Below are positions 6,248 to 58,753 of a DNA stretch of 64,000 nucleotides, piece after piece. The notes below the pieces were generated by a model. The model did not search any database. It was given only the letters and a program-made list of their open reading frames with translations, and was not told the DNA's origin. The stretch spans positions 64,001-128,000 of the forward strand of contig CAVQJC010000004.1 of the NCBI GenBank assembly GCA_963712745.1, read 5' to 3'. A program made the translations under genes and the position numbers. Numbering within the stretch: the stretch's first letter is position 1; every line of letters begins with the position of its first letter. Source of the stretch: an uncultured Chloroflexia bacterium. GTDB lineage: Bacteria > Chloroflexota > Limnocylindria > Limnocylindrales > CSP1-4.

Positions 6248-6251
6248 GGCG

Positions 6252-7124: not shown

Positions 7125-7211
7125 CAGCGCTCAGCCCGCTCGCACGCGGTCGATACCGGCCGGAGGTCGCGTGTCTCGTATCGCACCATCTCGGTCACTC
7201 GGTCATCGACC

Positions 7212-8177: not shown

Positions 8178-9061
8178 GCAGCACCTCCCTCAGGCTCGCC
8201 GAGCTCGGCCATGGCGATGGCGAACTCCTCGTCGGTGGGCACACCCATGTGCCACTGGTAATTGCCGGCCATGTAGCTGACGCCATAGCCCTTGAGCGTG
8301 TTGGCGATGACCGCGGTCGGGCGGCCGGTGGGCTCAGCGGCGGCCTCGAGCACGCGCACCACCTCGACCATGTCGTTGCCGTCCATCTCTAGCACCCGCC
8401 AGCCGAAGGCTGTGAAGCGGGCCACCAGGTCGCCGGGTTCCTCGGGCGGCAGGCGGTCGGTGGCCGACTCGCCACGCCAGCCGAACTGCTGGAGCCTGTT
8501 GTGGTCGACGATGGCGATGAGGTTGTCCGCCCTGTAGCGCGGCGCCACGTGGGCGGCCTCCCAGACCTGGCCCTCCTGGCACTCGCCGTCACCGAGCAAC
8601 ACGTACGTCAGGAACTCCTGGCCCAGGTGCCTCGCGCCCAGGGCCATGCCCAGACCGGCAGACAGGCCCATGCCCAGCGAGCCGGTCGAGATGTCGATGC
8701 CGGGCAACTTGTTCATGTCGGGATGGCCCTGCAGGCGCGCGCCCTTCTTGTTGAAGGTCGACATCTCCGCGAGCGGGAAATAGCCCGCCAGCGCCATGGC
8801 AGCGTACTGGCCCAGCGCGGAGTGGCCCTTCGACAGGATGAAACGGTCGCGATCTGGCCAGTCGGGCTCGCCGGGGCGGATGCGCAGGATGCGGCCGTAC
8901 AGCGCGGCCAGGATGTCGGCAGCCGAGAGGGGCCCGCCCACGTGGCCGACCTTGCACTCCGCGACGGTACGGATGACCGCCACACGGATGCGCCGGGCCA
9001 TGTCCTCCAAGCGCGCGATCTCGCCGGCCGGCACGCTGCCGGCTGCCATATCGGCGGTCAT
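8174..9061 (-). CDS. Transketolase, N-terminal (ThDP-binding) subunit
   Basis: GHVGG, RDRFILSKGH, LQGHP, STGSLG, GDGE...N ThDP motif; ATGA overlaps with neighbours. Confidence 0.93.
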   Translation of the reverse strand: MTADMAAGSVPAGEIARLEDMARRIRVAVIRTVAECKVGHVGGPLSAADILAALYGRILRIRPGEPDWPDRDRFILSKGHSALGQYAAMALAGYFPLAEMSTFNKKGARLQGHPDMNKLPGIDISTGSLGMGLSAGLGMALGARHLGQEFLTYVLLGDGECQEGQVWEAAHVAPRYRADNLIAIVDHNRLQQFGWRGESATDRLPPEEPGDLVARFTAFGWRVLEMDGNDMVEVVRVLEAAAEPTGRPTAVIANTLKGYGVSYMAGNYQWHMGVPTDEEFAIAMAELGEPEGGAA

Positions 9062-9429
9062 GCCGACCCGTTGCCTTTCTCGTAGGAGCCGGGCACGACG
9101 GGTGGGCTGAAGAAGCAGGCGATCTCGAGCGGCTCGGGCCCGTCCGACTCGGTGGCGTGCGGCGTCCCGGGACTGACCCAGACCGCGACCCCGGGCTCCA
9201 TCTCGGCCACCCCATCGGGCGTGACGATGCGGCCGCGGCCACTGACGCAGTAGATCGTCTCCTCCTGGATGTCGTGTACGTGTCCTTCCGGCGCAGAGCC
9301 TGCGGGGAAGACCGAGACGCCGAATGAGATGCGCTCGGTGGCGATGTTCTCGGGCCCGAGGTACGTATGCCAGTCACGACCGGGGAGGGGATAGACCTCG
9401 GCCTCCCCGCGTGACACGCGCTTCATCAT
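9058..9429 (-). CDS. Cupin domain protein
   Basis: HVHDIQEETIY...G and PGTPH cupin metal motifs; GAGGT SD before ATG 9429. Confidence 0.85.
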   Translation of the reverse strand: MMKRVSRGEAEVYPLPGRDWHTYLGPENIATERISFGVSVFPAGSAPEGHVHDIQEETIYCVSGRGRIVTPDGVAEMEPGVAVWVSPGTPHATESDGPEPLEIACFFSPPVVPGSYEKGNGSA

Positions 9430-9496
9430 CAGTGCACCTCGTTGCATCCCTGTGCCACCTGTTCTCGCAGCGTCGGTCCCTCCACGAACCGTCACA

Positions 9497-9538
9497 ATCG
9501 ATTATCGAGGATACGCTTTTCGGGCAAGCCAATGTCAA
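9497..9538 (-). promoter_or_regulatory. Putative leftward sigma70 promoter (TTGACA/TATCCT) abutting operator TCGATTATCGA
   Basis: Minus-strand TTGACA 9538-9533 and TATCCT 9513-9508 (19-bp spacer, long); palindrome at 9498-9508. Confidence 0.55.
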
Positions 9539-9676
9539 GCGGACCCGCATCGGGGGGCCATCCGGCCCAAGCGTATAGCCGAACCGCAACCGGGCAGGGA
9601 AAAGCGGGCACCGAGCCACGGGCCAAGGGGCCGTCAGGCCCGTCCTCAGCATGACCACGAGCACGGGCACGATTCC

Positions 9677-9726
9677 TTGACGGTCGTAGGCTGGGACGCG
9701 TATGGTCATCGGTAATCGATTATCTA
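9677..9726 (+). promoter_or_regulatory. Putative rightward sigma70 promoter (TTGACG-18-TATGGT) followed by two overlapping imperfect TCGATnATCGA operators
   Basis: TTGACG 9677-9682, TATGGT 9701-9706, TCGGTAATCGA 9709-9719, TCGATTATCTA 9716-9726. Confidence 0.62.
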
Positions 9727-9906
9727 TGAGTCCGGCCCGGCACCGCCCGGGCGGACACAGGGGTGGAGGGTTGCCGCTGGCGCACCTGTCGTGATTCGGC
9801 TCGGGCTGAGGGGCCGGGGCCACGGGCGTACACCATGGCTCGGAGGGAGCCGATGTCAGGGACCGGTCGTGGAGGACGATCGGCATACCAAGGAGGCGAA
9901 CGACAG

Positions 9907-11649
9907 ATGGGATTGATGAACGACGACGTCCTCGGGCAGTTCCTGGGGGACGATTCGTTCCCGATCGAGTGGACGTCCGAGACCGAGAAGCGTCTCTTCT
10001 GGGTCTATGACGACCTGCACTGCCCCAAGCCGCTGAGCCCGATGTACGAGGACATCGGCGGCTGGTGGCTGTCCTGCGACCACATGTTCCGCCGCTTCGG
10101 AACGCCCTTCGCGACCGATTGGATCTACAAGAACATCAACGGCTACCTCTACACCGCGGCCATCCCGGCCGAGGCAGGGATCAACGTCGAGACGCAGGAG
10201 TACAACCTGCGCACCAACCCGATCGTGCCGGAGTCGAGCGACGCCGACTACGCCGAGAAGATCGGCGCGTACCTGAATGCGACCCTCGGCGTCTACGGCC
10301 AGAACTTCGTGACCTGGTGGCGCACGCGCTTCGTGCCCGAGATGCAGCGTAACTTCGACTACATCGAGGGCATGCTCGAGCAGAAGGACGAGCTCAGCCT
10401 GGCCGACCTGGCGGTCCTCCTCGAAGACGCTATCGACATGCATGACCGCCACTGGAAGATCCACTGGATGCTGAACTTCGCGCAGCTGTCTGCGACGCTC
10501 AACCTGCGGGCGGTCATGGAGGAGACGCACGGCGCGGCCGACGAGGTCCTGCTCGGTCGACTGCAGAACTCGGCCAACGACCGCAACTGGGACAAGATCC
10601 GCGCCCTCTGGGAGATGAAGGAGGAGGTCAAGGGCGACGCGGAGATGTCGCAGATCTTCGCTGCCGAGACGGCCATCGAGATCGTACCCGCGCTGCAGGC
10701 CAGCGGCCGCGGCCAGCGCTTCATCGAGGAGCGCGTGGTGCCGTACCAGATGGAGTTCGGGTGGCACGCGGTCTGGAGCCACGAGTTCGTGTTCCCCACC
10801 TTCCGCGAGGACATGACCCCCATCATCCAGCTCATCCGCGACCAGTACGCGTCCGACTACGACTTCAACAAGGCCATCGACGACCTCAAGGCCGATATCG
10901 ACGCGGCCGCAGTGGAGATCCTCGAAGGGCTGGACGGTGAAGCGCTCGAGAAGATGCGAGCCGCCAACGAGATCAACCTCAAGATGGCGCCGCTCACGCC
11001 CGACCACCACTTCTACATCGACCAGGGTGCCAATGCCCACGTCCGCCTGGTGCTCATCGCCATCGGCGAGAAGCTCGTCGAGGCCGGCGCACTGGACAAG
11101 GCCGACGACGTGGTCATGTTCCGCTACAACCAGCTTCGCGCTTTCATCGGGGCTCCTGAGAGCATGGACGGACGCGCCATCGCGGCCGAAGCCTGGGCCA
11201 AGTGGCACGCTGCCGAAGCGGTCCAGCCCAAGGACTGGGTCGGCACCGCCACCGAGGTGCAGCTGGCCTTCCCGTACCTGAACCTGTGGGGCTTCCCCGA
11301 CAAGTTCCATCGCTCCCAGGAGAAGGTGGCCGGCCAGGTCAGCGGCATCGCCGGCTCGCCCGGCGTGATCGAAGGTATCGCGCGCGTGGTCAACTCGGAG
11401 GCCGAGTTCGACAGCCTGCAGGTGGGCGAGATCCTGGTCTGCCAGATGACCAACCCCGCCTGGCAGGTGCTCTACGGCAAGATCATCGCCGTGGTCACCG
11501 ACGCCGGTGGCACCGTCTCGCACCCGGCGGTGCTGGCGCGCGAATACGGCATCCCCGCGGTCGTGGGCACCTCCACCGGTACCTACGACATCAAGACCGG
11601 TGACCGTCTCCGCGTCGACGGCAACGCCGGCGTGGTCGAGATCCTCTAG
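9907..11649 (+). CDS. PEP-utilising enzyme family phosphotransferase: substrate-binding domain plus C-terminal phospho-His swivel domain, no ATP-grasp domain
   Basis: C-terminal GSPGVIEG...GGTVSHPAVLAREYGIPAVVG...DGNAGVVE; no GGKG/VRSS ATP-grasp motifs; AGGAGG SD before ATG 9907. Confidence 0.85.
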   Translation: MGLMNDDVLGQFLGDDSFPIEWTSETEKRLFWVYDDLHCPKPLSPMYEDIGGWWLSCDHMFRRFGTPFATDWIYKNINGYLYTAAIPAEAGINVETQEYNLRTNPIVPESSDADYAEKIGAYLNATLGVYGQNFVTWWRTRFVPEMQRNFDYIEGMLEQKDELSLADLAVLLEDAIDMHDRHWKIHWMLNFAQLSATLNLRAVMEETHGAADEVLLGRLQNSANDRNWDKIRALWEMKEEVKGDAEMSQIFAAETAIEIVPALQASGRGQRFIEERVVPYQMEFGWHAVWSHEFVFPTFREDMTPIIQLIRDQYASDYDFNKAIDDLKADIDAAAVEILEGLDGEALEKMRAANEINLKMAPLTPDHHFYIDQGANAHVRLVLIAIGEKLVEAGALDKADDVVMFRYNQLRAFIGAPESMDGRAIAAEAWAKWHAAEAVQPKDWVGTATEVQLAFPYLNLWGFPDKFHRSQEKVAGQVSGIAGSPGVIEGIARVVNSEAEFDSLQVGEILVCQMTNPAWQVLYGKIIAVVTDAGGTVSHPAVLAREYGIPAVVGTSTGTYDIKTGDRLRVDGNAGVVEIL

Positions 11650-11669
11650 AGGATCGAGCAGCCGCGGCC

Positions 11670-12386
11670 ATGACGGACGACGCCGGGATCACGCGCAGTG
11701 TCCTGAGCGAGCAAGTCAAGGGTCGCCTGCTGCAGGCGATCCTTGACGGTCGCTACCCGCCGGGCGCCCGCATCGTGGAGACCCGCGTGGCCAAGGAGTT
11801 CGGCACCAGCCAGGCTCCGGTGCGCGAGGCTCTGCGAGACCTGGAGGCGCTCGGCGTGGTGGAGACCGCTCCGTTCAAGGGCGCTCGCGTGCGCCAACCG
11901 ACCACTGAGGAGCTGCTGGAGGCTTTCGAGGTTCGCGCCATCCTGGAAGGCCACGGTGCCGTGCTGGCCATGGAGAACGTGACCGAGGAGGAGCTCGCCC
12001 GGCTCAGCGAGCTCATCGAGCTCATGCGCGAGGCAGCCATCGCGGGCGACCCCTTCCGCGAGGCCACCGCCGACACCGAGTTCCACCGGCTGATCATGCG
12101 ACGCTCCGGGAACGCCACCCTCGAGCGCGTCTGGTCGACGCTAGAACCGTTCCTGCGCACGTACATCACGATCGTCTCGCCGGGTGTCGACCGACGCGCG
12201 GTGGCCGATCGGCACATCCCCATCATCGAAGCCCTGCGCCGGCAAAACCCCGTCCTTATCGAGGAGGCCTTCCGGGTCCACTTCGAGGCTGCCGCGGCGG
12301 CCCTGGCCGAGGTCTGGCCGAACCACAGTGGCGACCAGACCACCGATACCCGCACGCCGGACCAGATGCCGGCCATCGCCATCTAG
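11670..12386 (+). CDS. GntR family transcriptional regulator (FCD domain)
   Basis: wHTH YPPGARIVE...GTSQAPVREAL; FCD motif DTEFHRLI...SGN. Confidence 0.93.
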   Translation: MTDDAGITRSVLSEQVKGRLLQAILDGRYPPGARIVETRVAKEFGTSQAPVREALRDLEALGVVETAPFKGARVRQPTTEELLEAFEVRAILEGHGAVLAMENVTEEELARLSELIELMREAAIAGDPFREATADTEFHRLIMRRSGNATLERVWSTLEPFLRTYITIVSPGVDRRAVADRHIPIIEALRRQNPVLIEEAFRVHFEAAAAALAEVWPNHSGDQTTDTRTPDQMPAIAI

Positions 12387-12408
12387 CCCCAGTACGCGAA
12401 AGGACACC

Positions 12409-13299
12409 ATGAGCCCAGAGCTTGTACTCAGCCAGGAGATGTCGGCGGGTCCGGCGCGACTCCGCGTAGACGTGCTCGGCGGCCCGGCCCGCGAAAGCAT
12501 CGTCGACGACATGGACTTCCTCAACTACCGCCTGGCTGCGGTGACCATGGAAGACGCCGTGACCCTCGCCGAGCCGGACGTGCTCTGGGATGTCGGGGCC
12601 GACAAGGAGATCGGCTACGACGGCCACACCATGCGCCTGTCGGGGGACTGGAGCGTGGGCGCTATCCAGAAGGTGCTGGTCACGATGCTGGCCCTGCGCC
12701 TGGAGGCGAAGGGATTGCATCCCTCACATTCCTCGGCGGTGCGGTACCAGGACAAGTCGATCCTCTTCCTGGGCGGCGAGTCGAACCACGGCAAGTCGAT
12801 GGGCCAGATCGAGGCCTGCCGGCGCGGCGGCCTGCTCATCAGCACCGAGACCACCATCATCGACGAGGACGTGCAGGCGGTCATGGGCTCCAAGTCGGTC
12901 TTTCTGCGCGAGAAGCGGGCCAAGGGCACCGAGCGTGCTGACAAGGCCGCTCCGACCCAGGGCGTGAACAAGTTCTGGGGCGACATGCCCACCTGGAACG
13001 AGTATCCAGACGTCAGCGAGATCGATGTGGTGGTGCTGCCGGCCATCGACGGCAACTTCGACCCCAGCACCAAGGAGCTGGGCGAGTTCGAGTCGCAGTT
13101 CCAGGCGTTGCACTCGCTGCAGAACTACTTCCTCACCAATGAGCTGCTGGCGCCGGGTTTCCCCATGCCGCTGACCGATACCGAAGCGCTGCGGCGGGAC
13201 CGAGCCCGGTTCGTTCAGAAGTTCGGTGACCGGCCCTTCTACTTCGTCCGCGCAGCCACCCCGCAGGTGCTCATGGACGAGGTCGACAGGGTCCTCTAG
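12409..13299 (+). CDS. Hypothetical protein with HprK-related P-loop kinase-like motif
   Basis: HSSAVRYQDKSILFLGGESNHGKS resembles the LHASAV...GxSGxGKS motif of HprK-related kinases. Confidence 0.55.
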   Translation: MSPELVLSQEMSAGPARLRVDVLGGPARESIVDDMDFLNYRLAAVTMEDAVTLAEPDVLWDVGADKEIGYDGHTMRLSGDWSVGAIQKVLVTMLALRLEAKGLHPSHSSAVRYQDKSILFLGGESNHGKSMGQIEACRRGGLLISTETTIIDEDVQAVMGSKSVFLREKRAKGTERADKAAPTQGVNKFWGDMPTWNEYPDVSEIDVVVLPAIDGNFDPSTKELGEFESQFQALHSLQNYFLTNELLAPGFPMPLTDTEALRRDRARFVQKFGDRPFYFVRAATPQVLMDEVDRVL

Positions 13300-13319
13300 G
13301 CAGATCCCGGAACAGGCCG

Positions 13320-14189
13320 ATGCGCAGGTTCGCCTACGAGCGTCCCAGGACGCTGGCCGAAGCGACCCGACTCCTGGCGGAGGCGGGCGCGGAGGCGCGC
13401 ATCCTCGCGGGCGGCACCGATCTGGTGGTGGGCCTGCGCGACGGATCCATCAAGCCGGCCGTGGTGGTCGACCTCAAGTGGGTCGAGGACCTCGCCGACC
13501 CGCCGATCGTGGCGGGCGACGGGGCGATCACCTTCGGCGCCCTGGCCACGATGAGCCAGATCGAGCACGATGCGGGGGTGCTGCGCCGCCTGCCGGCCCT
13601 GGCCGAGGCCGCGCGGGTGGTGGGCTCGGTCCAGATCCGCAACCGCGCCACGCTCGCGGGCAACATCTGCAACGGGTCCCCGGCCGCGGATACGACACCG
13701 CCCCAGCTGGTGTACGGCGCGACCGTGGTGGTGGCCGGCCCGGATGGGGAGCGGCGTGTGCCCATCGATGAGTTCGTGCTCGGCCCCAGGCAGGTGGACC
13801 TGCGGCTCGGCGAGCTCGTGGCCGCCATCGAGGTCCCGCTCCCGAAGCCCGGTCTCGGGGCCGCCTACACGCGCCTTGTGCGACGGCGCGGCACCGACCT
13901 GGCCTCGGTCACGATGGCCGTCTCGGTCGACGGGGAAGGGACTGCCCAGCTGGCCTACGGCAGCGTCGGCCCGCGCGCCTTCCTGGTGCGTGACGATAGC
14001 GGGACTCTCGCCGATCCCGACGCGGCGCCTGGGGCCCGGGCCGCCGTGCTGGAAGAGCTGTTGAGCCAGGCCACGCCCTCGCCACGCTCGATCCGGGCCA
14101 GTCCCGACTACCGCCTGGCCATGCTGCGCGTGCTCGCCATGCGCGCACTCGGCTCCGCCATCGAACGCCGCTCGGGGAGTACCGCCTGA
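13320..14189 (+). CDS. Xanthine dehydrogenase-family Mo-hydroxylase, FAD-binding subunit
   Basis: AGGTDL, QIRNRATLAGNICNGSPAAD, RASPDYR. Confidence 0.93.
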   Translation: MRRFAYERPRTLAEATRLLAEAGAEARILAGGTDLVVGLRDGSIKPAVVVDLKWVEDLADPPIVAGDGAITFGALATMSQIEHDAGVLRRLPALAEAARVVGSVQIRNRATLAGNICNGSPAADTTPPQLVYGATVVVAGPDGERRVPIDEFVLGPRQVDLRLGELVAAIEVPLPKPGLGAAYTRLVRRRGTDLASVTMAVSVDGEGTAQLAYGSVGPRAFLVRDDSGTLADPDAAPGARAAVLEELLSQATPSPRSIRASPDYRLAMLRVLAMRALGSAIERRSGSTA

Positions 14190-14665
14190 TGGCCGATCGC
14201 CTCACCATCAACCTCACCATCAACGCTCGCGCGCGCGAGCTGGACGTCGCCGTCCACCACACGCTGCTGGAGGTACTGCGCGACGAGGTCGGCCTGACCG
14301 GCACCAAGGAGTGCTGCGTGGTCGGCGAGTGCGGCGCCTGCACGGTGCTGGTCGACGGGCGTTCGGTCAACTCGTGTCTGATGCTGGCCGTGGAGGCCGA
14401 TGGGGCGGAGGTGCTGACCGTCGAAGGGCTGGCCGAGGATGGCGAGTTGAGTCCGCTGCAGGAAGCCTTCCTCGACGAGGGCGCGGCCCAGTGCGGCTTC
14501 TGTATCCCCGGCCAGTTGATGTCGGCCACGGCCCTGCTCGAGACGGTCGACGATCCGAGCGACGATCAGATCCAGGAGGCGCTGGCGGGCAACCTCTGCC
14601 GCTGCGCCGGCTACGAGCAGATCTTCGCAGCCGTGCGCCAGGCCGCACGCGAGGCGCGGGCATGA
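14189..14665 (+). CDS. Xanthine dehydrogenase-family (2Fe-2S) subunit
   Basis: GTKECCVVGECGACTV, QCGFC, GNLCRCAGY. Confidence 0.95.
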   Translation: MADRLTINLTINARARELDVAVHHTLLEVLRDEVGLTGTKECCVVGECGACTVLVDGRSVNSCLMLAVEADGAEVLTVEGLAEDGELSPLQEAFLDEGAAQCGFCIPGQLMSATALLETVDDPSDDQIQEALAGNLCRCAGYEQIFAAVRQAAREARA

Positions 14666-16935
14666 GCGACCTCCTCATCGGTACCTCGCCCCACCGCGTC
14701 GGTGGCTACGAGCGGGTCACCGGCGCCCAGGCCTATCTGGCCGACATCCACTTCGCCGACGTGCTGCATGCCAAGCTCGTCACGGTCCCGGTCGGCCGGG
14801 CCCGCATCATCAGCATCGACACGCGCGATGCGAAGGCTGTGCCCGGCGTGCGGCTGGTCATGACCGCGGACGACCTGCCCCAGCCGGTCCCGCGCTACGG
14901 GCCGCAGTACCAGGACCGGCCCGTGCTGGCAGTCGGCGAGACGAAGTTCCACGGCGAGCCGGTGGCCGCGGTGGCCGCCGACAGCAGGGACGTGGCCGAG
15001 GAAGCGGCGCGCCTGGTCAGGGTCGAGTACGAAGAGCTGCCCGGCGTCTATACCGTGGCGCAGGCGCTGGCGGCCGATGCGCCGCTCGTGCGCGAACCGG
15101 AGCTGCGCCCCGCGGACGATCCACTGCGGGACAGCAACGTGCTCACCACGCGCGTCTACGGCTGGGGTGACGTGGAGGCGGCCGAGACAGAAGCGGCCTG
15201 CGTCATCGACGAGACCTACTCGTTCCCCATGATCACGCACTTCGCCATCGAGCCGCACGCCTTCGCGGCCGCACCCGATGAGGACGGCATCGCCATCTGG
15301 TCGACCATCCAGCATCCGTACCTGTTGCAGAAGCTGATGGCCCGCCTGCTCGATCTGCCCCTGTCCAAGGTACGGGTCTACGCTCCCGACCCCGGCGGCG
15401 GGTTCGGTGGCAAGCAGAACATCAAGCTCGAACCGCTGGTCGCGTTCATGGCGCTCGACACGGGCCGGCCGGTTCGGCTCGTGCTCAGCCTCGACGAGTC
15501 CTTCCAGGCCGCTCGTCGAGTCTCGGCGGAGGTGCGGGTCCGCACGGGCTTCAGCCCCGATGGCCGTCTGCTCTTCGAGGACATCCGAAGCGACTACCTG
15601 CTGGGTGCCTACGCCGACATCGCCGAACGGGTGGTGGCCAAGAGCCAGTACACCGCAGCCGGCCCCTACAAGGTGCCAAACGTGCGCATCAGCGCGCGCT
15701 CGATCCTCTCCCACACCACGCCGGCCTGTGCCTTCCGTGGCTTCGGCACGCCCCAGGTCAACTGGGCCGTGGAGTCGAACGTGGACGCCGGCGCGCGGGC
15801 ACTGGGCATCGACCGCGCCGAGATCCGCTTGCGCAACCTCGCCACACGCGGCGAGGAAGTGGTGCCTAACGACACGCCCGCCGACGGCCTCTGGCCCGAG
15901 ACCGTGGAGAAGGCCATGGATCTCATCGGCTGGGAGTCGCCGCTGCCGGAGGGCCACGGACGCGGCATCGCCGTGGGCATCAAGTCGAGTGCGACTACGG
16001 GCCTGTCGTATTCGACCGTGCGCTTGCTGGCCGACGGCAGCGTGGTGGTCTACGCGGGCACCAGCGACATGGGCCAGGGAGCCCGCACCATCTTCGCCCA
16101 GGTCGCGGCCAACGAACTGGGCGCACCGCTCGAGTGGGTCAACGTGATCATGGGCGACACCGCCGTCGTGCCCTACGACCAGCAGACCTCGGCCAGCCGC
16201 TCGACCGTCTTCATGGGCAACGCCATCATGCGCGCCTGCCGCGACATCCAGGCCCAGGTTCGGACCATGGCCTCCGCCGCGGAGAGCGTGCCCGAGAGCC
16301 AGATCGTGGTGGCTGAGGGCGTCGTCAGCCTGCCCGATCGCGATGTAACGATGCTGGAGGTGGCGAGGGCCGGCCTGGGCAAGCTGGGTGGTGAGCTCAT
16401 CGGCAACGGCATGTACCGCAAGGAGGTCGAGCCGGACCACCCGCTCGGCGGCAGCCCGGCGTTCTACGAGTTCAACTGCACAGCCATCGAGCTGTCGGTG
16501 GACGAGGACACCGGCCACATCACCATCCACAAGCACGTCATCGTGGGTGACACGGGCAAGTCGCTGAACCCGGGCCAGGTGACGGGCCAGGACGAGGGTG
16601 CGGCCATCATGGGCCTCGGCCACACGCTTATGGAGCACATCATCCTCGACGAGAACGGCGCCATCCGGAACCTCGGTGCCATCGACTACCGCATCCCCAC
16701 CTCCATGGACCTGCCCAGGCACATGGAGAGCGCCGCCATCGAGAACGAGGACGGGCCGGGACCGTACGGGTCCAAGGGCGTGAGCGAGGGCGGACTGCTC
16801 TCGGTCCAGTCTGCGGTGGGCGCAGCCTTGGCCGATGCCACGGGCGTCGTCATCCGGGAGCTGCCCCTCACACCGGAGCACGTGTGGCGGTGCCTGCGGG
16901 ACGCGCGCACGGACCAAGGCGGGACCCGCACCTAG
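14662..16935 (+). CDS. Xanthine dehydrogenase-family molybdopterin-binding subunit
   Basis: GGGFGGK, AFRGFGTPQ, DMGQG, TSASRS, GPYGSKGVSE with catalytic Glu; ATGA overlap at 14662. Confidence 0.94.
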   Translation: MSDLLIGTSPHRVGGYERVTGAQAYLADIHFADVLHAKLVTVPVGRARIISIDTRDAKAVPGVRLVMTADDLPQPVPRYGPQYQDRPVLAVGETKFHGEPVAAVAADSRDVAEEAARLVRVEYEELPGVYTVAQALAADAPLVREPELRPADDPLRDSNVLTTRVYGWGDVEAAETEAACVIDETYSFPMITHFAIEPHAFAAAPDEDGIAIWSTIQHPYLLQKLMARLLDLPLSKVRVYAPDPGGGFGGKQNIKLEPLVAFMALDTGRPVRLVLSLDESFQAARRVSAEVRVRTGFSPDGRLLFEDIRSDYLLGAYADIAERVVAKSQYTAAGPYKVPNVRISARSILSHTTPACAFRGFGTPQVNWAVESNVDAGARALGIDRAEIRLRNLATRGEEVVPNDTPADGLWPETVEKAMDLIGWESPLPEGHGRGIAVGIKSSATTGLSYSTVRLLADGSVVVYAGTSDMGQGARTIFAQVAANELGAPLEWVNVIMGDTAVVPYDQQTSASRSTVFMGNAIMRACRDIQAQVRTMASAAESVPESQIVVAEGVVSLPDRDVTMLEVARAGLGKLGGELIGNGMYRKEVEPDHPLGGSPAFYEFNCTAIELSVDEDTGHITIHKHVIVGDTGKSLNPGQVTGQDEGAAIMGLGHTLMEHIILDENGAIRNLGAIDYRIPTSMDLPRHMESAAIENEDGPGPYGSKGVSEGGLLSVQSAVGAALADATGVVIRELPLTPEHVWRCLRDARTDQGGTRT

Positions 16936-16961
16936 CCAGCACCAGGACGAGGAGGAGAGAG

Positions 16962-17870
16962 ATGCCCAGGCCAGAAGAGATGCCCAGGCCGGGGGAGGTC
17001 GGTCCCATCAAGGACATGCCCGCGGAGCAGGTGGTCAAGGCCGCCGCCATGATCAAGCAGGGCAGGATGATCTCGCTGGCGGCAACGCGATTCGATGGCA
17101 TGCCGCTGTTCCCCGGACACCCGCCCTTCCAGGTACTCAACGCGGTCAGCCCGCGCGGCATCGTCAACCAGGGTCGCCAGCCCTGGGGGCCGGTCAACGA
17201 GGCCAACCTCGGCTACATGGCCGAGTACCTGATGTGCACCTCGCACTCGGGTGCCCACATCGACGGTCTCGCCCACATGACCATCGGCGAGGACATGCAC
17301 TGGTATGGCGGCGGCCAGGCGGACAAGCACCTCACCGACCACGGTCCCAACTTCGGCGATGCCAGCAAGATGCCCCCGTTCTTCACCCGCGGCATCTTCC
17401 TCGATGTGCCCAACCATCGCGGTGTCCCGCACCTCAAGCACGGCGAGGTCGTGGATGCGGCCGAGCTGGAGGACATCGCCAAGGCGCAGGGCGTCGAGGT
17501 CCGCCAGTGGGACGTGGTCGTCATCCGCACCGGCTACATGAGCCTGTGGCCGGACTTCGACGCGATGATGGCCAACAAGACCGCCGGCCCGGACATCAGC
17601 GCGGCGGACTGGCTGCTCAAGAAAGGCGTCGTCGCGACCGGCACCGATACCGAGACCTACGAGGTCCAGCCGGCGCCCGACCTGGGCCCCGAGGGCAATC
17701 CGCAGCCGGTCCACAAGCACCTGCTCATCGACAACGGCATCTATCTCATGGAAAGCCTCGACCTCGAGGAGCTGGCTCGCGAGAAACTCTACGAGTTCGC
17801 CTTCATCGCGCTGCCCATCAAGATCAAGGGCGCGACCGCATCCATGGTCGATCCCGTCGCCGCCATCTAG
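16962..17870 (+). CDS. Cyclase family metal-dependent amidohydrolase (kynurenine formamidase/isatin hydrolase-like)
   Basis: HSGAHIDGLAH (HxGxHxDxxxH), IRTG, PVHKHLL...GIYLMESL, GATAS. Confidence 0.9.
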   Translation: MPRPEEMPRPGEVGPIKDMPAEQVVKAAAMIKQGRMISLAATRFDGMPLFPGHPPFQVLNAVSPRGIVNQGRQPWGPVNEANLGYMAEYLMCTSHSGAHIDGLAHMTIGEDMHWYGGGQADKHLTDHGPNFGDASKMPPFFTRGIFLDVPNHRGVPHLKHGEVVDAAELEDIAKAQGVEVRQWDVVVIRTGYMSLWPDFDAMMANKTAGPDISAADWLLKKGVVATGTDTETYEVQPAPDLGPEGNPQPVHKHLLIDNGIYLMESLDLEELAREKLYEFAFIALPIKIKGATASMVDPVAAI

Positions 17871-17901
17871 CCCAGTCCAGCCAGTCGAACCCGGAAGGAG
17901 C

Positions 17902-19532
17902 CGCCCCGTGACCGAGACCATGCAGGCACTCGTCGTGCTTGGACCCGAGAAGTTCGAGATCGGGGAGGTCCCGGTCCCCGAGCCCGGCCCGATGGAAGTG
18001 CTCTGCCGGGTCAAGGCGGTGTCGATCTGCGGCACCGACTCGCACCTCATCGCCGGCGACTACCCCGGCTTCTGGCCGCCGGCCTTCCCCATCATCCCCG
18101 GGCACGAGTGGTCCGGTGAGATCGTCAAGCTGGGCCCGGGAGCGGAGAAGGCCGGCTGGCAGCTGGGTGACCGCGTGGCCGGCACGAGCCACGACGCCTG
18201 TGGTGTCTGCCAACCGTGCGTCGAGGGCCGCTACAACCTGTGCGAGAACTACGGCGTGATGGACCTCCATCGCCAGTACGGCCACAACTACCAGGGGGCC
18301 GACGCCGAGTACGTGGTCCACGGCGTCAAATGCATCTTCCCCCTGCCCGACACGGTCAGCTGGGAGGAGGGTGCGGTCATCGACCCCGCATCCATCGCGC
18401 TGCACGTGGCCAACCGTGCCCAGATCCAGCCGGGCGACAACGTCGGCATCATGGGCGGGGGTGCCATCGGCCTGCTCGGCGGCGAGGCCGCCAAGATCCG
18501 CGGCGCCGGCCGGGTCATCATCGTCGAGCCGCTCGAGCTGCGCCGCCAGAAGGCCCTGGACATGGGTTTCGAGGTCATCGACTCCACGGCCGGGGACGCC
18601 GGCGCCAGGCTGCGTGAGATGACCGGGGGCATCGGCGTGGACAAGATCATCGAGGCCGCGGGAGTGCCCATCACCGTGAGGTGGTCCCTGGCGGCGCTGC
18701 GCAAGGGCGGCCGCATCGCGGCCGTCGGTATCCCCAGCAAGGGTGTCGAGATCGACATGCGCGATCTCGTGCTCTACGAGCTCGAGATCGCCGGCTCGCG
18801 CGCCTCGGCCGGCGAGATGCGCCGGGTCATGCCACACGTGGCCGACGGCCGCATGCGGCTGCGGGAGGTCATGAGCCACGAGTTCGCCCTGGCCGACTAT
18901 GCCCATGCCCTGGCCACGTTCCGAGACCCAGGCAGCGGTGCTATCAAGATCATCATCAAGCCCTGACGCGGTCTCGCGCCGTCCGCCCGCTGCCGACCAG
19001 GCCGCCCCCCGCCTGCGCTGGAGTCAGACCATGACCACGATCGCCCCGTGACCGAGACCATGCAGGCACTCGTCGTGCTTGGACCCGAGAAGTTCGAGAT
19101 CGGGGAGGTCCCGGTCCCCGAGCCCGGCCCGATGGAAGTGCTCTGCCGGGTCAAGGCGGTGTCGATCTGCGGCACCGACTCGCACCTCATCGCCGGCGAC
19201 TACCCCGGCTTCTGGCCGCCGGCCTTCCCCATCATCCCCGGGCACGAGTGGTCCGGTGAGATCGTCAAGCTGGGCCCGGGAGCGGAGAAGGCCGGCTGGC
19301 AGCTGGGTGACCGCGTGGCCGGCACGAGCCACGACGCCTGTGGTGTCTGCCAACCGTGCGTCGAGGGCCGCTACAACCTGTGCGAGAACTACGGCGTGAT
19401 GGACCTCCATCGCCAGTACGGCCACAACTACCAGGGGGCCGACGCCGAGTACGTGGTCCACGGCGTCAAATGCATCTTCCCCCTGCCCGACACGGTCAGC
19501 TGGGAGGAGGGTGCGGTCATCGACCCCGCATC
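17902..19532 (+). repeat. 491-bp identical direct repeat (17902-18392 = 19042-19532, offset 1140)
   Basis: Line-by-line identity from CGCCCCGTGACCGAG to GACCCCGCATC. Confidence 0.92.
17908..18966 (+). CDS. Zinc-binding (MDR) alcohol/polyol dehydrogenase, copy 1
   Basis: SICGTD, GHEWSG, CxxCxxC...C structural Zn, GGGAIG Rossmann motif. Confidence 0.92.
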   Translation: MTETMQALVVLGPEKFEIGEVPVPEPGPMEVLCRVKAVSICGTDSHLIAGDYPGFWPPAFPIIPGHEWSGEIVKLGPGAEKAGWQLGDRVAGTSHDACGVCQPCVEGRYNLCENYGVMDLHRQYGHNYQGADAEYVVHGVKCIFPLPDTVSWEEGAVIDPASIALHVANRAQIQPGDNVGIMGGGAIGLLGGEAAKIRGAGRVIIVEPLELRRQKALDMGFEVIDSTAGDAGARLREMTGGIGVDKIIEAAGVPITVRWSLAALRKGGRIAAVGIPSKGVEIDMRDLVLYELEIAGSRASAGEMRRVMPHVADGRMRLREVMSHEFALADYAHALATFRDPGSGAIKIIIKP

Positions 19533-20103
19533 GCTGGCTCTCCATTGCGCCCGGCGGGGCGGCATCTGCCCCGGCGACAGCGTGGTCGTCATGGGCGCCG
19601 GGCCGGTCGGTCTCCTGGCGGCTGACGCGGCCCTGGCCGTGGGCGCGGGCCGGGTCATCGTGGTCGGACGCGGGCCGCGTCTGCAGAAGGCTCTGCAGAT
19701 GGGTTTCATCGGCCTGGACAGCAACGCGGTGGAGCCGGCAGAGGCGGTGCGTGAGCTCACGCACGGGTTCGGCGCGGACGTCGTCATCGAGGCGGCCGGT
19801 ACGCCGACCACGCTGCAGTGGTCCCTGGCGGCCCTGCGCAAGGGTGGCCGCATCGCCGCGGTCGGCATCCCCGCGGAAGGCGTTACGATCGACATGCGAG
19901 AGCTCGTGCTCTACGAACTCGAGATCGCCGGCTCGCGCGCCTCTGCCGGTGAGATGCGCCGGGTGATGCCGCTCATCGCTGATGGGCGCATCCGTTTGCG
20001 CGAGATCATGACCCACCAGTTCGCGCTGGCTGACTTCGGCGAGGCCCTGGCCACATTCCGAGATCGCTCCAGCGGGGCGATCAAGATCACCATCAAGCCG
20101 TAG
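19048..20103 (+). CDS. Zinc-binding (MDR) alcohol/polyol dehydrogenase, copy 2
   Basis: N-terminus identical to copy 1; GAGPVG Rossmann motif; divergent C-terminal half. Confidence 0.9.
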   Translation: MTETMQALVVLGPEKFEIGEVPVPEPGPMEVLCRVKAVSICGTDSHLIAGDYPGFWPPAFPIIPGHEWSGEIVKLGPGAEKAGWQLGDRVAGTSHDACGVCQPCVEGRYNLCENYGVMDLHRQYGHNYQGADAEYVVHGVKCIFPLPDTVSWEEGAVIDPASLALHCARRGGICPGDSVVVMGAGPVGLLAADAALAVGAGRVIVVGRGPRLQKALQMGFIGLDSNAVEPAEAVRELTHGFGADVVIEAAGTPTTLQWSLAALRKGGRIAAVGIPAEGVTIDMRELVLYELEIAGSRASAGEMRRVMPLIADGRIRLREIMTHQFALADFGEALATFRDRSSGAIKITIKP

Positions 20104-20123
20104 CAGGGGAGCACGAGCTGGAC

Positions 20124-22256
20124 ATGAACTGGTCGTTCGCATTCGATCGTCCGCCGCAGTTGAGCGCCGACGAGCTGAGAGCCTTGCTCGGCGGCAAGGG
20201 TGCGAACCTCGCGGTGATGACGACCGAGCTGGGCCTGCCGGTGCCACCCGGTTTCGTCATCTCCACCGACGCCTGCAAGGCCTACATGCGCGATGGCTGG
20301 CCCCCCGGCCTCGACGATGAGCTGCGAGTACAGATGGCGCGCATCGAGCAGCAGGTGGGCCGTCGTTTCGGCGACGCGGGCGATCCCCTGCTGGTGAGCG
20401 TGCGCTCGGGGGCGCCGGTATCGATGCCGGGCATGCTCGATACCATCCTCAACCTCGGGCTCAACGACCAGACCACGGCCGGTCTCGGGCAAGCCGCCGG
20501 TGACGTTGAGTTCGCAGGTGCCTGCCGGAAGCGACTCGAGGCCATGTACCGTGACATCGTCGGGGTCGAGGAGGTGCCGGCCGATCCGTGGGCCCAGCTG
20601 CGTGCCGCCGTGGAGTCCGTGTTCCGCAGCTGGGACAGCGACCGGGCGCGCAGCTATCGCGAACGCGAGTCCATCGCGCCCGACCTGGGTACCGCCGTGG
20701 TCGTGCAGGCCATGGTCTTCGGCAACCGCGGGCCCGACTCCGCGACCGGTGTGCTCTTCACGCGCAACCCGGCCACGGGCGAGAACACGCTCTACGGCGA
20801 CCTGCTGTTCGGTGCCCAAGGCGAGGACGTCGTCGCCGGCACGCACGCGACCGAACCGATCTCGGCGCTCGAAACGCGGCTGCCCGGCGTGGCCATGGAG
20901 CTGCGTTCCTACGCCGACCAGCTCGAGCATCACTACGGCGACATCTGCGACATCGAGTTCACCATCGAAGAAGGTCGCCTGTGGATGCTCCAGAACCGCA
21001 TCGGCAAGCGCACCGCGCAGGCAGCCTGCCGCGCCGCGGTCGAGATGGCCGAGGACGAGGCCTTCCCGTTGTCACGACCGGAGGCGGTCGAACGCGTGCG
21101 GGAGATCCTGGTGGATCCGCCGGTCATCGCCGCCGAGATGAGCGGCAACGTCGAGATCGTGGCGGCCGGGCTGGGAGCCTCGCCGGGGCTGGCGACCGGC
21201 GCTATCGCCACCACTCCCGAAGCTGCCGTTCGCATGGCCGCGGCCGGCACGGACGTGCTGCTGGTCCGCGCGGAGACCTCGCCGGACGATGTGCACGGCA
21301 TGGCCAAGTCGGTGGGCATCCTGACCTCAACCGGCGGCCTTGCCTCTCACGCGGCCGTGGTCGCTCGTGGCTGGGACATCCCGGCCGTGGTCGGCGCGAT
21401 CGGCGTGGTCGTGGGCGAAGGCGGCGTCGCCATCGCCGATACGCTCTACCGAGAAGGGGACGTCATCAGCATCGACGGCAGCACCGGGGAGGTCTACGGA
21501 GGCCCGGTCGAGTCGATGACGACGGTGGTGCCCGAAGCTGCCATGCTCATCGCCTGGGCCCGGGAGCTGGGCATCGAGATCGCACAGCCACATGAGTCGG
21601 AGGAGGGCAGCGCCGTGGTCTCTGCAGGTGAGGGCGATGTGGCAGCCGAGGATGTCGTTCGCGTGCTCGCGATCAAGGGCTATGTGATGCCTGACATGCT
21701 GGCGCCTGCGCTGGGCGTCAGCGCCGATGAGACACAGCAGCAGCTTGACCGGCTGGCAGCGGACGGCATCGTCAAGGAATCCGGTGGCATGTTTAGCCTG
21801 ACCGATGACGGCAAGGCCCTGGGAACCGAGATGATCGCGGCCGACCGCGAGGCCTGGGGTGCGGAGAATGCGCTCGCCGCGCTCGATGCCTTCCTTGTGC
21901 TCGACAGCCAGATGAAGACGATCGTGACCGCCTGGCAGATGAAGGAGGTCGGCGGTGAACAGGTGCTCAACGATCACACCGACGCCGAGTACGACGCGGG
22001 CGTCCTCTCGCAGCTGGCCGCGCTCCACGTCGAGGCCACGGCCTGGATCGCGCCGCTCTATGCCGGGCTGGCCCGGCTGGTGGCCTACGGCAAGCGGCTG
22101 GACGTAGCGGCAGAGGCGGCTGCCGCCGGCGACGGGATGTACATCGCCTCACCGCGGGTCGACAGCTACCACGGGGTCTGGTTCGAACTGCACGAGGATC
22201 TCATCCGCCTGGCCGGCCGCACGCGCGAGGACGAAGTCGCGGCCGGCCGCGCCTGA
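20124..22256 (+). CDS. Truncated pyruvate,phosphate dikinase-like protein (ATP-grasp + phospho-His domain) fused to a C-terminal wHTH/helical domain
   Basis: LLGGKGANLA, VSVRSGAPVSMPGMLDT, QAMVFGN, QGEDVVAG, DIEFT, GGLASHAAVVARG; no pyruvate-binding TIM barrel; ends DSYHGVWFELHEDL. Confidence 0.85.
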   Translation: MNWSFAFDRPPQLSADELRALLGGKGANLAVMTTELGLPVPPGFVISTDACKAYMRDGWPPGLDDELRVQMARIEQQVGRRFGDAGDPLLVSVRSGAPVSMPGMLDTILNLGLNDQTTAGLGQAAGDVEFAGACRKRLEAMYRDIVGVEEVPADPWAQLRAAVESVFRSWDSDRARSYRERESIAPDLGTAVVVQAMVFGNRGPDSATGVLFTRNPATGENTLYGDLLFGAQGEDVVAGTHATEPISALETRLPGVAMELRSYADQLEHHYGDICDIEFTIEEGRLWMLQNRIGKRTAQAACRAAVEMAEDEAFPLSRPEAVERVREILVDPPVIAAEMSGNVEIVAAGLGASPGLATGAIATTPEAAVRMAAAGTDVLLVRAETSPDDVHGMAKSVGILTSTGGLASHAAVVARGWDIPAVVGAIGVVVGEGGVAIADTLYREGDVISIDGSTGEVYGGPVESMTTVVPEAAMLIAWARELGIEIAQPHESEEGSAVVSAGEGDVAAEDVVRVLAIKGYVMPDMLAPALGVSADETQQQLDRLAADGIVKESGGMFSLTDDGKALGTEMIAADREAWGAENALAALDAFLVLDSQMKTIVTAWQMKEVGGEQVLNDHTDAEYDAGVLSQLAALHVEATAWIAPLYAGLARLVAYGKRLDVAAEAAAAGDGMYIASPRVDSYHGVWFELHEDLIRLAGRTREDEVAAGRA

Positions 22257-22285
22257 CACGCACGAGCCGCTACGCTGGGAGAACC

Positions 22286-23578
22286 ATGCCGACGCAAGCA
22301 GAGCTCGAAGTCGCGACGCTGGGGTCCGCCCGCTTCGATTCGCCGCTCGTGGCCAGGGGCCGGCGACTCCCGGACCCTGAGTTGCGTGTCCGCTACCAGG
22401 CCCGAGAGGGTTCGGCCGAACTGGAGGGAGAGGACCTCTTCCTCGAGAAGGCCGGACCACGCGAGAAGCTGTACTTCGACCCAGCCGGGACGACGGCTGC
22501 TTTCGTCACCTGTGGCGGTCTCGCCCCGGGCCTGAACAACACCATCCGCTCGGGTTTCTACGAGCTCCTTCACAACTACGGCGTCAAGCGCGTCCTCGGC
22601 ATCCGCAACGGCTACCAGGGCCTGGTGCTGTCCGAGGGCCTTGAGCCCATCGTGCTCACGCCAGACATGGTCGATGACATCAACGACCTGGGCGGGACGG
22701 TGCTGGGAACCTCGCGTGGCGGCCGCGACCCAGCAGAGATCGTCGACTTCCTCGAGGCGCACGCCATCGACATCCTCTTCTGCATCGGCGGTGACGGCAC
22801 CCAGCGTGGTGCCCACAGCATCGAGCAGGAGGTGCGCGCTCGCGGCGGGAAGCGTTCCATCGTGGGCATCCCCAAGACCATCGACAACGACGTGCCCTTC
22901 GTCTACACCAGCTTCGGCTACGCGACCGCGCTCGAGGAGGCAGCGCAGATCCTGCGAGGCGCGCACGTGGAGGCCAAGAGCCACAGAAGCGGGATCGGCC
23001 TGGTCAAACTCATGGGCCGGGACGCCGGCTTCATCACGGCCGGCGCCGCCATCGCCAGCCAGGAGGCCAACTTCGTGCTGGTCCCGGAGGTCCCCTTTCC
23101 GCTCGACGGCCCCTCCGGCTTCCTCGAGGTGCTCGAGCGACGCATGATCGAGCGGGACCACGCGGTCGTGGCCGTGGCCGAGGGGGCCGGTCAGCACCTG
23201 TTCGAGAGCGGCGACGCCACGGTCGATGCCTCGGGCAACCGCCGCTATCGGGATATCGGCGTCTTCCTGCGCGACCGCATCCGCCAGCACTTCCGTGAGC
23301 GGGAGATGCCGGTCACGGTCAAGTATTTCGATCCCAGCTACGCCATCCGCAGTGTGCCGCCCAATGCCTTCGACCGCATCCTCACCGACCGCATGGCGCG
23401 CAACGCCGTGCACGCGGCCATGGCCGGCAAGACCGACGTGATGGTGGGCTCGTGGAACCAGGCCACGATCTGGGTGCCCATCGCTGCTGCGGTCGCCGAA
23501 CGTAAGAACATGTCACCCGACGGCGACATCTGGCGCGCGGTCCTCGCCACGACCGGCCAGCCGAACTGGGGCGGTTGA
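22286..23578 (+). CDS. pfkA: 6-phosphofructokinase, long PfkA clade, probably ATP-dependent
   Basis: TCGGLAPGLN, GGDGT, PKTIDND, MGRDAG, DPSYAIRS; Gly in GGDG suggests ATP use. Confidence 0.88.
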   Translation: MPTQAELEVATLGSARFDSPLVARGRRLPDPELRVRYQAREGSAELEGEDLFLEKAGPREKLYFDPAGTTAAFVTCGGLAPGLNNTIRSGFYELLHNYGVKRVLGIRNGYQGLVLSEGLEPIVLTPDMVDDINDLGGTVLGTSRGGRDPAEIVDFLEAHAIDILFCIGGDGTQRGAHSIEQEVRARGGKRSIVGIPKTIDNDVPFVYTSFGYATALEEAAQILRGAHVEAKSHRSGIGLVKLMGRDAGFITAGAAIASQEANFVLVPEVPFPLDGPSGFLEVLERRMIERDHAVVAVAEGAGQHLFESGDATVDASGNRRYRDIGVFLRDRIRQHFREREMPVTVKYFDPSYAIRSVPPNAFDRILTDRMARNAVHAAMAGKTDVMVGSWNQATIWVPIAAAVAERKNMSPDGDIWRAVLATTGQPNWGG

Positions 23579-25054: not shown

Positions 25055-25100
25055 GGTCGCGGTTCCTCCCCGGGGGTATGTACTGAGTTGGCCCGGCGCG

Positions 25101-25886: not shown

Positions 25887-25946
25887 GCTGGTTCCTCCAT
25901 GCGCATGTCCGCGTTGCCCGGCGGGCAAGGGGTGCGGTGTCCTTCA

Positions 25947-58667: not shown

Positions 58668-58753
58668 GCGGGCGTGGCGGAACGGTAGACGCGGCAGCCT
58701 TAGGAGCTGTTGACCGAAAGGTCGTGGAGGTTCGAGTCCTCTCGCCCGCACCA
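58668..58753 (+). tRNA. tRNA-Leu(TAG)
   Basis: GCGGGCG acceptor stem, anticodon arm GCAGC-CTTAGGA-GCTGT, long variable arm, GGTTCGAGTCC, encoded CCA; CATAAT -10 upstream. Confidence 0.96.

Follow-up and report, generated by a model that had tools for sequence, protein, structure and literature searches.

The window analyzed here is a stretch of 64,000 nucleotides (positions 64,001 to 128,000 of contig CAVQJC010000004.1) from an uncultured Chloroflexia bacterium, with a base composition of about 68% G+C; the nearest matches of its proteins are to Chloroflexota of the class Candidatus Limnocylindria. A run of plus-strand genes extends from 9907 to 23578 with intergenic gaps of at most 81 bp, and two of its open reading frames (ORFs), which encode protein A (9907 to 11649, 580 amino acids) and protein B (20124 to 22256, 710 amino acids), appear to supply complementary parts of a dikinase. 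An earlier reading made from the letters alone (the sequence-only reading) had proposed that B, the only ATP-grasp partner it saw in the window, charges A with phosphate. A six-frame profile scan of all 64 kb did find a single ATP-grasp domain, that of B, together with two swivel domains and one A-type binding domain. The features of the two proteins are as follows.

9907 to 11649, plus strand: protein A, predicted acceptor component of a split dikinase (Pfam PF00391, NCBIfam alignments, match to a rifampin phosphotransferase [RPH] profile)
20124 to 21563, plus strand: protein B residues 1 to 480, ATP-grasp (about residues 1 to 340) and swivel with His409 (Pfam PPDK_N and PF00391; NF004531)
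21564 to 22256, plus strand: protein B residues 481 to 710, linker, winged helix, and all-helical domain (structure model, conservation among orthologues)

Small-molecule dikinases can be divided over two polypeptides. PMC12167813 describes PpsAB, CreHI, and HpeHI as a subfamily of two-component small-molecule dikinases, in which an ATP-grasp-only protein is paired with an RPH-like binding and swivel protein whose His is charged in trans. Charging of the acceptor His in trans is given there for HpeH/HpeI and PpsA/PpsB, and HpeH and HpeI are said to form no stable complex. The comparison with phenylphosphate synthase drawn in the sequence-only reading holds up.

Protein A has the makeup of such an acceptor, with an RPH-like binding domain followed by a swivel His and no ATP-grasp. 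Its single Pfam domain is the phosphoenolpyruvate (PEP)-utilizers domain PF00391 at residues 506 to 575 (E 5.3e-21), which carries the swivel motif GGTVSHPAVLARE. Pfam found no PPDK_N in A, and residues 1 to about 500 matched none of the Pfam models scanned; precomputed annotation labels this N-terminal domain PF27448, a model outside the Pfam set scanned here. In NCBIfam, residues 141 to 580 aligned with the region of PigC, RedH, and RPH-type "PEP synthases" that comprises the binding domain and the swivel, while residues 24 to 580 aligned with the entire NF006153 model at 161 bits against a cutoff of 578. A is under the cutoffs of all NCBIfam PRK08296 models and scored 103 to 140 bits against the single-chain PigC/RPH-type models, whose cutoffs are 999 to 1350. 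A profile of 28 A relatives (positions 190 to 575) matched chain residues 496 to 878 of Listeria RPH (5hv2, 5fbs) with an E value of 5e-46, and His539 was invariant in all 28. These alignments point to an RPH/PigC/HpeH-like binding domain (about residues 1 to 470) and a C-terminal phospho-His swivel with His539 as the predicted catalytic residue. The large N-terminal domain and swivel His without an ATP-grasp had been read correctly beforehand, and the profile scan placed the grasp in B only. A is also unusually conserved, in that the best 119 database relatives listed (the window's own protein excluded) are 80 to 91% identical to it, while B orthologues are only 57 to 63% identical to the window's B.

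In PMC13400623, VadK (Rv1127c) is described as a pyruvate, phosphate dikinase (PPDK) without the barrel that autophosphorylates its swivel His with ATP and Mg. It is proposed there to regulate methylcitrate-cycle enzymes, and it has no known phosphate acceptor. Protein B contains PPDK_N (E 3.1e-50) and PEP-utilizers at residues 377 to 455 (E 3.4e-20), with the swivel motif GGLASHAAVVARG. Pfam found no PEP-utilizers_C, the PEP/pyruvate TIM barrel, in B or in any other window ORF scanned, so the earlier description of an ATP-grasp and swivel His without a pyruvate-binding barrel stands. Residues 17 to 481 matched solved PPDKs (E 1e-114). Against NF004531, the NCBI model for a truncated "pyruvate, phosphate dikinase," B scored 483.4 bits, above the curated cutoff of 456, with the match spanning only profile positions 19 to 467 of 534. 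Residues 1 to 480 are thus predicted to be a VadK-like truncated PPDK.

We next considered the residues of this part of B. K25, R94, D276, E278, Q290, R292, and H409 were invariant in 12 of 12 B orthologues, and in an alignment to PPDK 1ggo they landed on the GGKG, SVRSGA, D-x-EFTIE, and LQ-x-R motifs and on the catalytic His. In PPDK, the aligned motif residues bind nucleotide and phosphate. Because His409 and the residues aligned to the PPDK nucleotide site are invariant, autophosphorylation of His409 with ATP and Mg is plausible. The residue two before the catalytic His, the site of the regulatory Thr in PPDK, is Ala in B, and the best PDB match, 1ggo, also reads GGMASH.

B continues for 230 residues past the swivel region, and this conserved C-terminal domain (about residues 480 to 710), which belongs to no known family, had been missed in the sequence-only reading. 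It consists of a linker, a variable winged-helix part, and a strongly conserved all-helical part with invariant NDHxDxxYD and SYHxxW...HE motifs (invariant positions N, D, H, D, Y, D, H, S, Y, H, W, H, and E), and it is conserved in every B orthologue. Pfam gave weak winged-helix matches alone, and NCBIfam gave none. The structure model was of high quality (predicted local distance difference test [pLDDT] 94.7, predicted template modeling score [pTM] 0.89). A Foldseek search of the PDB with it returned 0 matches at an E value of 0.001 or less. The first 60 to 80 residues superposed on winged helices of the MarR/DtxR type, and the best whole-length rows were GntR/FCD regulators with E values of 0.018 to 0.05 and a template modeling score of about 0.2. 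Look-alikes in an atlas search were clusters of about 200-residue actinobacterial "MarR-like" proteins, a lead only at a score of just 0.83. In a protein-collection search with the domain, the best 120 matches listed were almost all fragments of B orthologues; among these 120 there were no informative stand-alone relatives, and no precomputed Pfam family covers the domain.

We compared the neighborhoods of A relatives across genomes. The query alignment combined A with nine diverse relatives found among 1.84 billion representative proteins; a scan of GTDB species genomes gave 603 pattern matches, of which 601 were confirmed, and the best 80 of the 601 loci were kept. Each locus (L001 and so on) is an A relative plus up to 10 kb on each side, and the counts below speak of such neighborhoods. 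Window genes were mapped onto the loci by BLASTP, and the grasp, swivel, A-binding, unk1 (a neighboring gene described below), and B C-terminal domains were mapped by iterated profile searches over all locus ORFs. A maximum-likelihood tree was built from 70 intact A-type sequences, including the window's A and two rows each from L041 and L075; ten loci with a cut or frameshifted A have no row.

The window's A fell into a clade of 15 rows with full support (100 in the Shimodaira-Hasegawa-like approximate likelihood ratio test [SH-aLRT]), and the A proteins partnered by B form one clade. A B-type gene was present in the locus for 12 of the 15 rows, the other three being L006, L007, and L018. The contigs of L006 and L007 end 1.8 and 1.6 kb past A, which is too early to tell. 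Because L001, L019, L021, and L025, whose A is frameshifted or cut and 59 to 84% identical to that of the window, all have a B-type gene (4 of 4), they were counted with the clade. In L010, only the grasp part of B is visible because the contig end cuts it. The partners found were distributed as follows.

A's own clade, 18 loci: B-type gene in 15, stand-alone grasp in 0, fused grasp in 0, none seen in 3
Nearest outgroups (A 33 to 58% identical), 15 loci: B-type gene in 0, stand-alone grasp in 12, fused grasp in 0, none seen in 3 (L016, L029, and L030)
Distant loci, 47 loci: B-type gene in 0, stand-alone grasp in 26, fused grasp in 5, none seen in 16

Members of Thermoleophilia, other Actinomycetes, Ktedonobacteria, Alphaproteobacteria, Anaerolineae, Thermomicrobia, Bacillota, and Acidobacteriota and one archaeon make up the nearest outgroups. 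In these loci the stand-alone PPDK_N gene is 270 to 350 codons long and is often placed between the gene for GntR and those for the molybdenum enzyme; it was confirmed by Pfam in L015 and L024 and is frameshifted in L032 and L033. The distant, grasp-partnered relatives are 24 to 33% identical to A. The B-partnered clade comprises Chloroflexota and two Acidimicrobiia metagenome-assembled genomes (MAGs). In most loci of this clade B closes the operon (in the window it is the penultimate gene); in L008 and L010 it is encoded divergently beside A, and in L012 it immediately precedes A. The association of A and B thus survives rearrangements of the cluster. The sequence-only reading had raised the prospect that A orthologues pair with a different PPDK_N gene, and this is the case in 12 of the 15 outgroup loci, for A relatives of 39 to 58% identity, but in 0 of the 18 loci with an A at least 59% identical to that of the window.

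This complementary pattern is what would be expected if B had taken over the role of the ATP-grasp subunit. The normal state of the family would be an acceptor with a small grasp, and on one branch the small grasp appears to have been lost from the cluster and a PPDK-derived protein gained and kept. The simplest account, which fits these counts, would be that a VadK-like truncated PPDK displaced the ATP subunit once, as a non-orthologous replacement. A mirror comparison of A and B identities gave a Spearman coefficient of 0.71 (45 pairs of 10 taxa), which we did not use as evidence because any two co-inherited genes would give such a correlation.

Several side observations concern the loci themselves. 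Broken A-type, B-type, or grasp genes (in two or more frames) occur in L001, L019, L025, L032, L033, and L073, and sequencing frameshifts are more likely than pseudogenes because most of these contigs are "MFD" assemblies. L041 (6831 to 11629) and L075 (8981 to 14844) each have two tandem A-type paralogues and one stand-alone grasp gene. In the protein collection, a single PPDK_N is combined with two swivel domains in the predicted proteins P0177, P0191, and P0253, in which A matches a second region beyond the first; predicted P0136 (1123 amino acids) has two swivel domains and no grasp, and predicted P0155 and P0192 (1832 and 2648 amino acids) have five and six swivel domains. The arrangement in L041 and L075 suggests that one grasp can serve two acceptor proteins, and with the fused P0177, P0191, and P0253 it would provide examples from nature in which several swivel modules share one grasp.

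Taken together, these results lead us to a reading in which A and B make up an ATP-dependent two-component dikinase for small molecules, of the same kind as PpsAB, CreHI, and HpeHI, with B in place of the grasp-only subunit as A's ATP-charging partner. We judge the chance that this is right to be about even. It would be consistent with B being the only ATP-grasp in the window and lying in the same gene run as A. In such a mechanism, B would bind ATP at its PPDK-type site, as its conserved site residues suggest, and the phosphoryl group would then reach His539 of A. It could do so if the A swivel docked on the grasp domain of B, as PpsA does on PpsB, or it could pass via B's own His409. Because of the homology of A with RPH and HpeH, we infer that the A swivel would then swing back onto the A binding domain and phosphorylate a hydroxyl or enol of a pathway intermediate. 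The C-terminal domain of B may dock B onto A, or it may couple the system to regulation.

A number of points weigh against this reading. The sequence-only proposal of B as A's charging partner gains from the B-type gene in 15 of 18 clade loci and the stand-alone grasp in 0 of 18, but the displacement lies on a single branch of the A tree, and therefore these loci count as one event and not as 15 independent ones. The loci reach at most 10 kb to each side of A, and a stand-alone grasp may lie elsewhere in the genome. With the stand-alone grasp of L027 as a query, the best 120 matches listed were all at least 55% identical and the few named were from Actinomycetota or Gaiellaceae, which is too crude to decide. 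In L018, the whole plus-strand operon is contained in a 10.6-kb contig with 0.7-kb flanks and has neither B nor a grasp, which shows that B need not sit in the cluster. Known grasp partners have no swivel, unlike B, and the tethered swivel His of B should outcompete the swivel of A for the ATP site of B. The extra domain of B opens with a winged helix, which is typical of DNA-binding regulators. PMC13400623 presents VadK, the sole studied truncated PPDK, as a regulator, and it has no known acceptor protein. Support for B as the partner of A is partial and comes only from comparative genomics, and contact and phosphotransfer between the two are putative. A structure prediction of A with B residues 1 to 340 and ATP, run without controls, gave no support (0.00 twice, with a mark of 0.32), an outcome that speaks neither for binding nor against it.

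The best-surviving alternative, which we regard as possible if doubtful, takes up the last domain of B. Because this domain starts with a winged helix, B could be a VadK-like regulatory autokinase whose phosphorylation state, as a readout of ATP, AMP, inorganic phosphate (Pi), and pyrophosphate (PPi), controls the winged-helix/helical domain or a pathway enzyme, and A would be charged by a stand-alone grasp elsewhere in the genome. B is above the cutoff of the truncated-PPDK model NF004531, and VadK itself is reported as a regulatory autokinase in PMC13400623. The MarR/DtxR-type start of the domain and its whole-domain GntR/FCD rows, with E values of 0.018 to 0.05 only, are in keeping with a regulator, as is the L018 operon without B. 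However, a GntR/FCD regulator is already encoded in the cluster, no regulator was matched significantly by the helical part with its invariant His, Asp, Glu, and Tyr residues, and an operator site and DNA binding by B are hypothetical. Furthermore, loss of the grasp and gain of B on the same branch would have to be a coincidence.

The distribution of the domain bears on the same question. A profile search over the 80 loci and the window matched B-type genes and one stand-alone archaeal ORF of 207 codons only. This ORF (L029, 7779 to 8402, minus strand), in a Desulfurococcaceae MAG, is divergent from an A relative (8535 to 10352, plus strand) that is 33% identical to A, and there is no ATP-grasp within the 20 kb examined. 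Placement divergent beside A is common for regulators. The domain has been seen only where a dedicated grasp is missing and therefore fits an adaptor role, but it also fits a regulator role.

The two-component reading can be carried further. In an extended form that we consider unlikely, truncated PPDKs of the VadK kind would be detachable ATP-charging modules for a separate acceptor, the C-terminal domain of B would be the adaptor onto A, and phosphate would pass from His409 of B to His539 of A and on to the substrate. This would amount to a swivel-to-swivel His phosphorelay feeding a small-molecule kinase. PPDK-type chemistry, which consumes Pi and releases PPi, could make this step reversible and energy conserving. 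The archaeal A of L029, with its stand-alone adaptor domain, would then recruit a housekeeping dikinase.

A quite improbable alternative is that B is a self-contained dikinase whose swivel His carries phosphate from the grasp to a substrate on the C-terminal helical domain, with A and B acting separately. B keeps the three-part layout of PPDK, a different conserved domain following the same linker in place of the barrel; His409 is invariant, and the C-terminal domain has an invariant polar cluster of the kind seen in binding or catalytic sites. The C-terminal fold matches no enzyme, however, and the archaeal stand-alone domain has no neighboring grasp and no neighboring swivel except that of A. 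Moreover, A would be left without an ATP source in the cluster, which its outgroup relatives have in 12 of 15 loci. Weakest of all, and very improbable, is that A in the window's clade works without an ATP-grasp as a phosphotransferase between two metabolites via His539: HpeH alone does move phosphate from 4-phosphoacetophenone to acetovanillone (PMC12167813), and L018, L016, L029, and L030 show A without a grasp in the DNA examined, but each of these four is a short locus or one with little flanking DNA, a grasp gene is retained in the nearest outgroups and B in 15 of 18 clade loci, and an enzyme that forms the phospho-donor was not identified.

The two-component dikinase of A and B would act in the setting of the genes around it. 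The remaining genes of the run and of its flanks are listed below.

11670 to 12386, plus strand: GntR/FCD transcription regulator (Pfam GntR and FCD; synteny)
12409 to 13299, plus strand: unk1, a Walker-A protein with a PEP-carboxykinase/HPr-kinase-like predicted fold (structure model, Foldseek)
13320 to 14189, plus strand: FAD subunit of a molybdenum hydroxylase/aldehyde oxidoreductase (Pfam FAD_binding_5, CO_deh_flav_C)
14189 to 14665, plus strand: 2Fe-2S subunit of the molybdenum hydroxylase (Pfam Fer2_2, Fer2)
14662 to 16935, plus strand: molybdopterin-binding large subunit (Pfam Ald_Xan_dh_C, MoCoBD_1, MoCoBD_2)
16962 to 17870, plus strand: cyclase-family hydrolase, kynurenine-formamidase-like (Pfam PF04199, E 8.3e-23)
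17908 to 18966, plus strand: first Zn-dependent alcohol dehydrogenase (Pfam ADH_N, ADH_zinc_N)
19048 to 20103, plus strand: second Zn-dependent alcohol dehydrogenase (Pfam ADH_N, ADH_zinc_N)
22286 to 23578, plus strand: phosphofructokinase (PFK; NF005301, 573.6 bits against a cutoff of 400)
9058 to 9495, minus strand: cupin, first gene of the divergent operon (Pfam Cupin_2)
7212 to 9061, minus strand: split transketolase, N-terminal half 8174 to 9061 and C-terminal half 7212 to 8177 (Pfam, NCBIfam, synteny)
24185 to 25928, minus strand: metallo-beta-lactamase-fold hydrolase (24185 to 25054) and short-chain dehydrogenase/reductase (SDR; 25101 to 25928) (Pfam, synteny)

The GntR/FCD gene comes after A in most related loci. 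The ATG of the large-subunit gene (14662) overlaps the stop codon of the Fe-S gene, and a Shine-Dalgarno-like GGAGGAG precedes the start codon of the cyclase-family gene. A mechanically listed ORF at 16835 to 17911 on the plus strand is in the wrong frame for this last gene; it is rich in Arg, Gly, and Pro and has a GC content at codon position 3 of 0.47, against 0.90 for the frame of 16884 to 17870. A promoter and terminator scan found no terminator-like site on the plus strand between 9907 and 23578 and a single promoter-like site at 9677 to 9706, and shuffled sequence yields as many. The PFK gene starts 29 bp past B. We rejected it as part of the system and consider it probably a neighbor specific to the window's lineage, because BLASTP synteny found a counterpart in 0 of the 80 related loci. 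On the minus strand, the divergent operon consists of the cupin, the split transketolase, and a Liv-type ABC transporter; the split transketolase also adjoins A relatives in L001, L025, and L024, and the pair of metallo-beta-lactamase-fold hydrolase and SDR recurs beside the cluster in L005, L008, L019, and L026.

The pathway may be a catabolic operon built around the molybdenum aldehyde oxidoreductase. Among the window ORFs, the Pfam scan found no carboxylase of the Pps or Hpe pathways, and no prpC- or prpD-like gene was found among those scanned. An Rfam scan of the 64-kb window gave no riboswitch that could name a substrate, its sole match being a tRNA at 58668 to 58750 on the plus strand; this tRNA is located upstream of the genes encoding trigger factor, ClpP, and ClpX. 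In the archaeal locus L029, two tungsten aldehyde:ferredoxin oxidoreductases (5921 to 7801, minus strand, and 10754 to 12643, plus strand) and a 4Fe-4S ferredoxin (12650 to 13132, plus strand) stand in for the bacterial three-subunit molybdenum hydroxylase, beside the same cupin, cyclase-family, and unk1 genes. Because tungsten enzymes of this kind take the place of the molybdenum enzyme there, the oxidoreductase step of the pathway is suggested to be aldehyde oxidation.

We also examined unk1, a protein of 296 residues with a Walker-A motif (GESNHGKS) and an invariant flexible loop at residues 167 to 182, where pLDDT is low. It matched no Pfam or NCBIfam model. Its atlas look-alike clusters were auto-named "PEP carboxykinase family" (score 0.98), and a fold search with its structure model (pLDDT 88.0, pTM 0.86) then confirmed this lead, with PEP carboxykinase (PEPCK) 1oen as the best Foldseek match in the PDB (E 2.4e-8) and HPr kinase (HprK) 1knx at an E value of 4.1e-5. 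From the model, the predicted fold of unk1 resembles a PEP carboxykinase or HPr kinase of half the usual size. The gene occurs in 19 of the 80 loci, the archaeon included, alongside both kinds of grasp partner, and counts as an accessory gene of the cluster. As a candidate for the missing ATP-grasp it was rejected, given its PEPCK/HprK fold and its co-occurrence with stand-alone grasps in L020, L023, L024, and L028. We also consider it unlikely to be a PDRP-like kinase acting next to the catalytic His, since the 28 relatives of A share no conserved Ser or Thr in the vicinity of His539. The presence of a PEPCK-like protein next to a PEP-synthase-like dikinase is a hint of phosphorylation followed by carboxylation or transfer.

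Two-component small-molecule dikinases were recognized as a subfamily only in 2025, and the truncated PPDK VadK was described in 2025-26. The cluster described here joins both and offers a concrete candidate acceptor for a VadK-like protein. If confirmed, it would show that one type of ATP-grasp has been exchanged for another in a naturally occurring modular kinase and would extend the ways in which swivel-His enzymes can be assembled from parts. It would also provide a working hypothesis for what cut-down dikinases may do, and thus for many "pyruvate, phosphate dikinase" annotations without a barrel, and would flag a widespread and highly conserved catabolic operon in soil Chloroflexota.

A full-text literature search found the VadK and HpeHI papers and no paper pairing a truncated PPDK with an HpeH-like protein. 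We compared the pair with each known system in turn. PPDK (EC 2.7.9.1) aligns over its residues 13 to 529 with the first 480 residues of B (E 1e-114), but it has a PEP/pyruvate TIM barrel that B does not. Rifampin phosphotransferase and PigC/RedH/HapC (PMC4844700) align with A in their binding and swivel parts, and the swivel mechanism is presumed to be the same; however, in RPH and PigC the grasp, binding domain, and swivel form one chain with one swivel, whereas A has no grasp and the system here has two chains, two swivels, and a PPDK-type grasp. B is like VadK in its PPDK ATP-grasp and swivel His, the loss of the barrel, and the conservation of the catalytic His and ATP-site residues. VadK and the NF004531 proteins have about 490 to 534 residues and nothing past the swivel, whereas B has 710 residues with a winged-helix/helical domain. 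Additionally, VadK comes from actinomycete pathogens and is linked to methylcitrate-cycle genes, whereas B comes from Chloroflexota and is found with an HpeH-like acceptor and a molybdenum oxidoreductase.

PpsAB, CreHI, and HpeHI share with A the RPH-like binding domain, the C-terminal swivel His, and the lack of an ATP-grasp, and in both cases ATP binding is on a second polypeptide of the same cluster in a catabolic setting. Their partner is a grasp-only protein of 270 to 350 residues of the PEP-synthase/RPH type, whereas B is of the PPDK type, has 710 residues, and carries both a swivel His and a further domain. A grasp-only partner is found in 12 of 15 outgroup and 26 of 47 distant loci and is absent from the 64-kb window and from the 18 loci of the A clade. 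From the domain data and both bodies of literature, A therefore looks like an acceptor of the HpeH/PpsA type and B like a VadK-type protein with an extra domain, and by analogy with the two-component dikinases the putative activity of the pair is ATP-dependent phosphorylation of a small molecule via a phospho-His, giving AMP.

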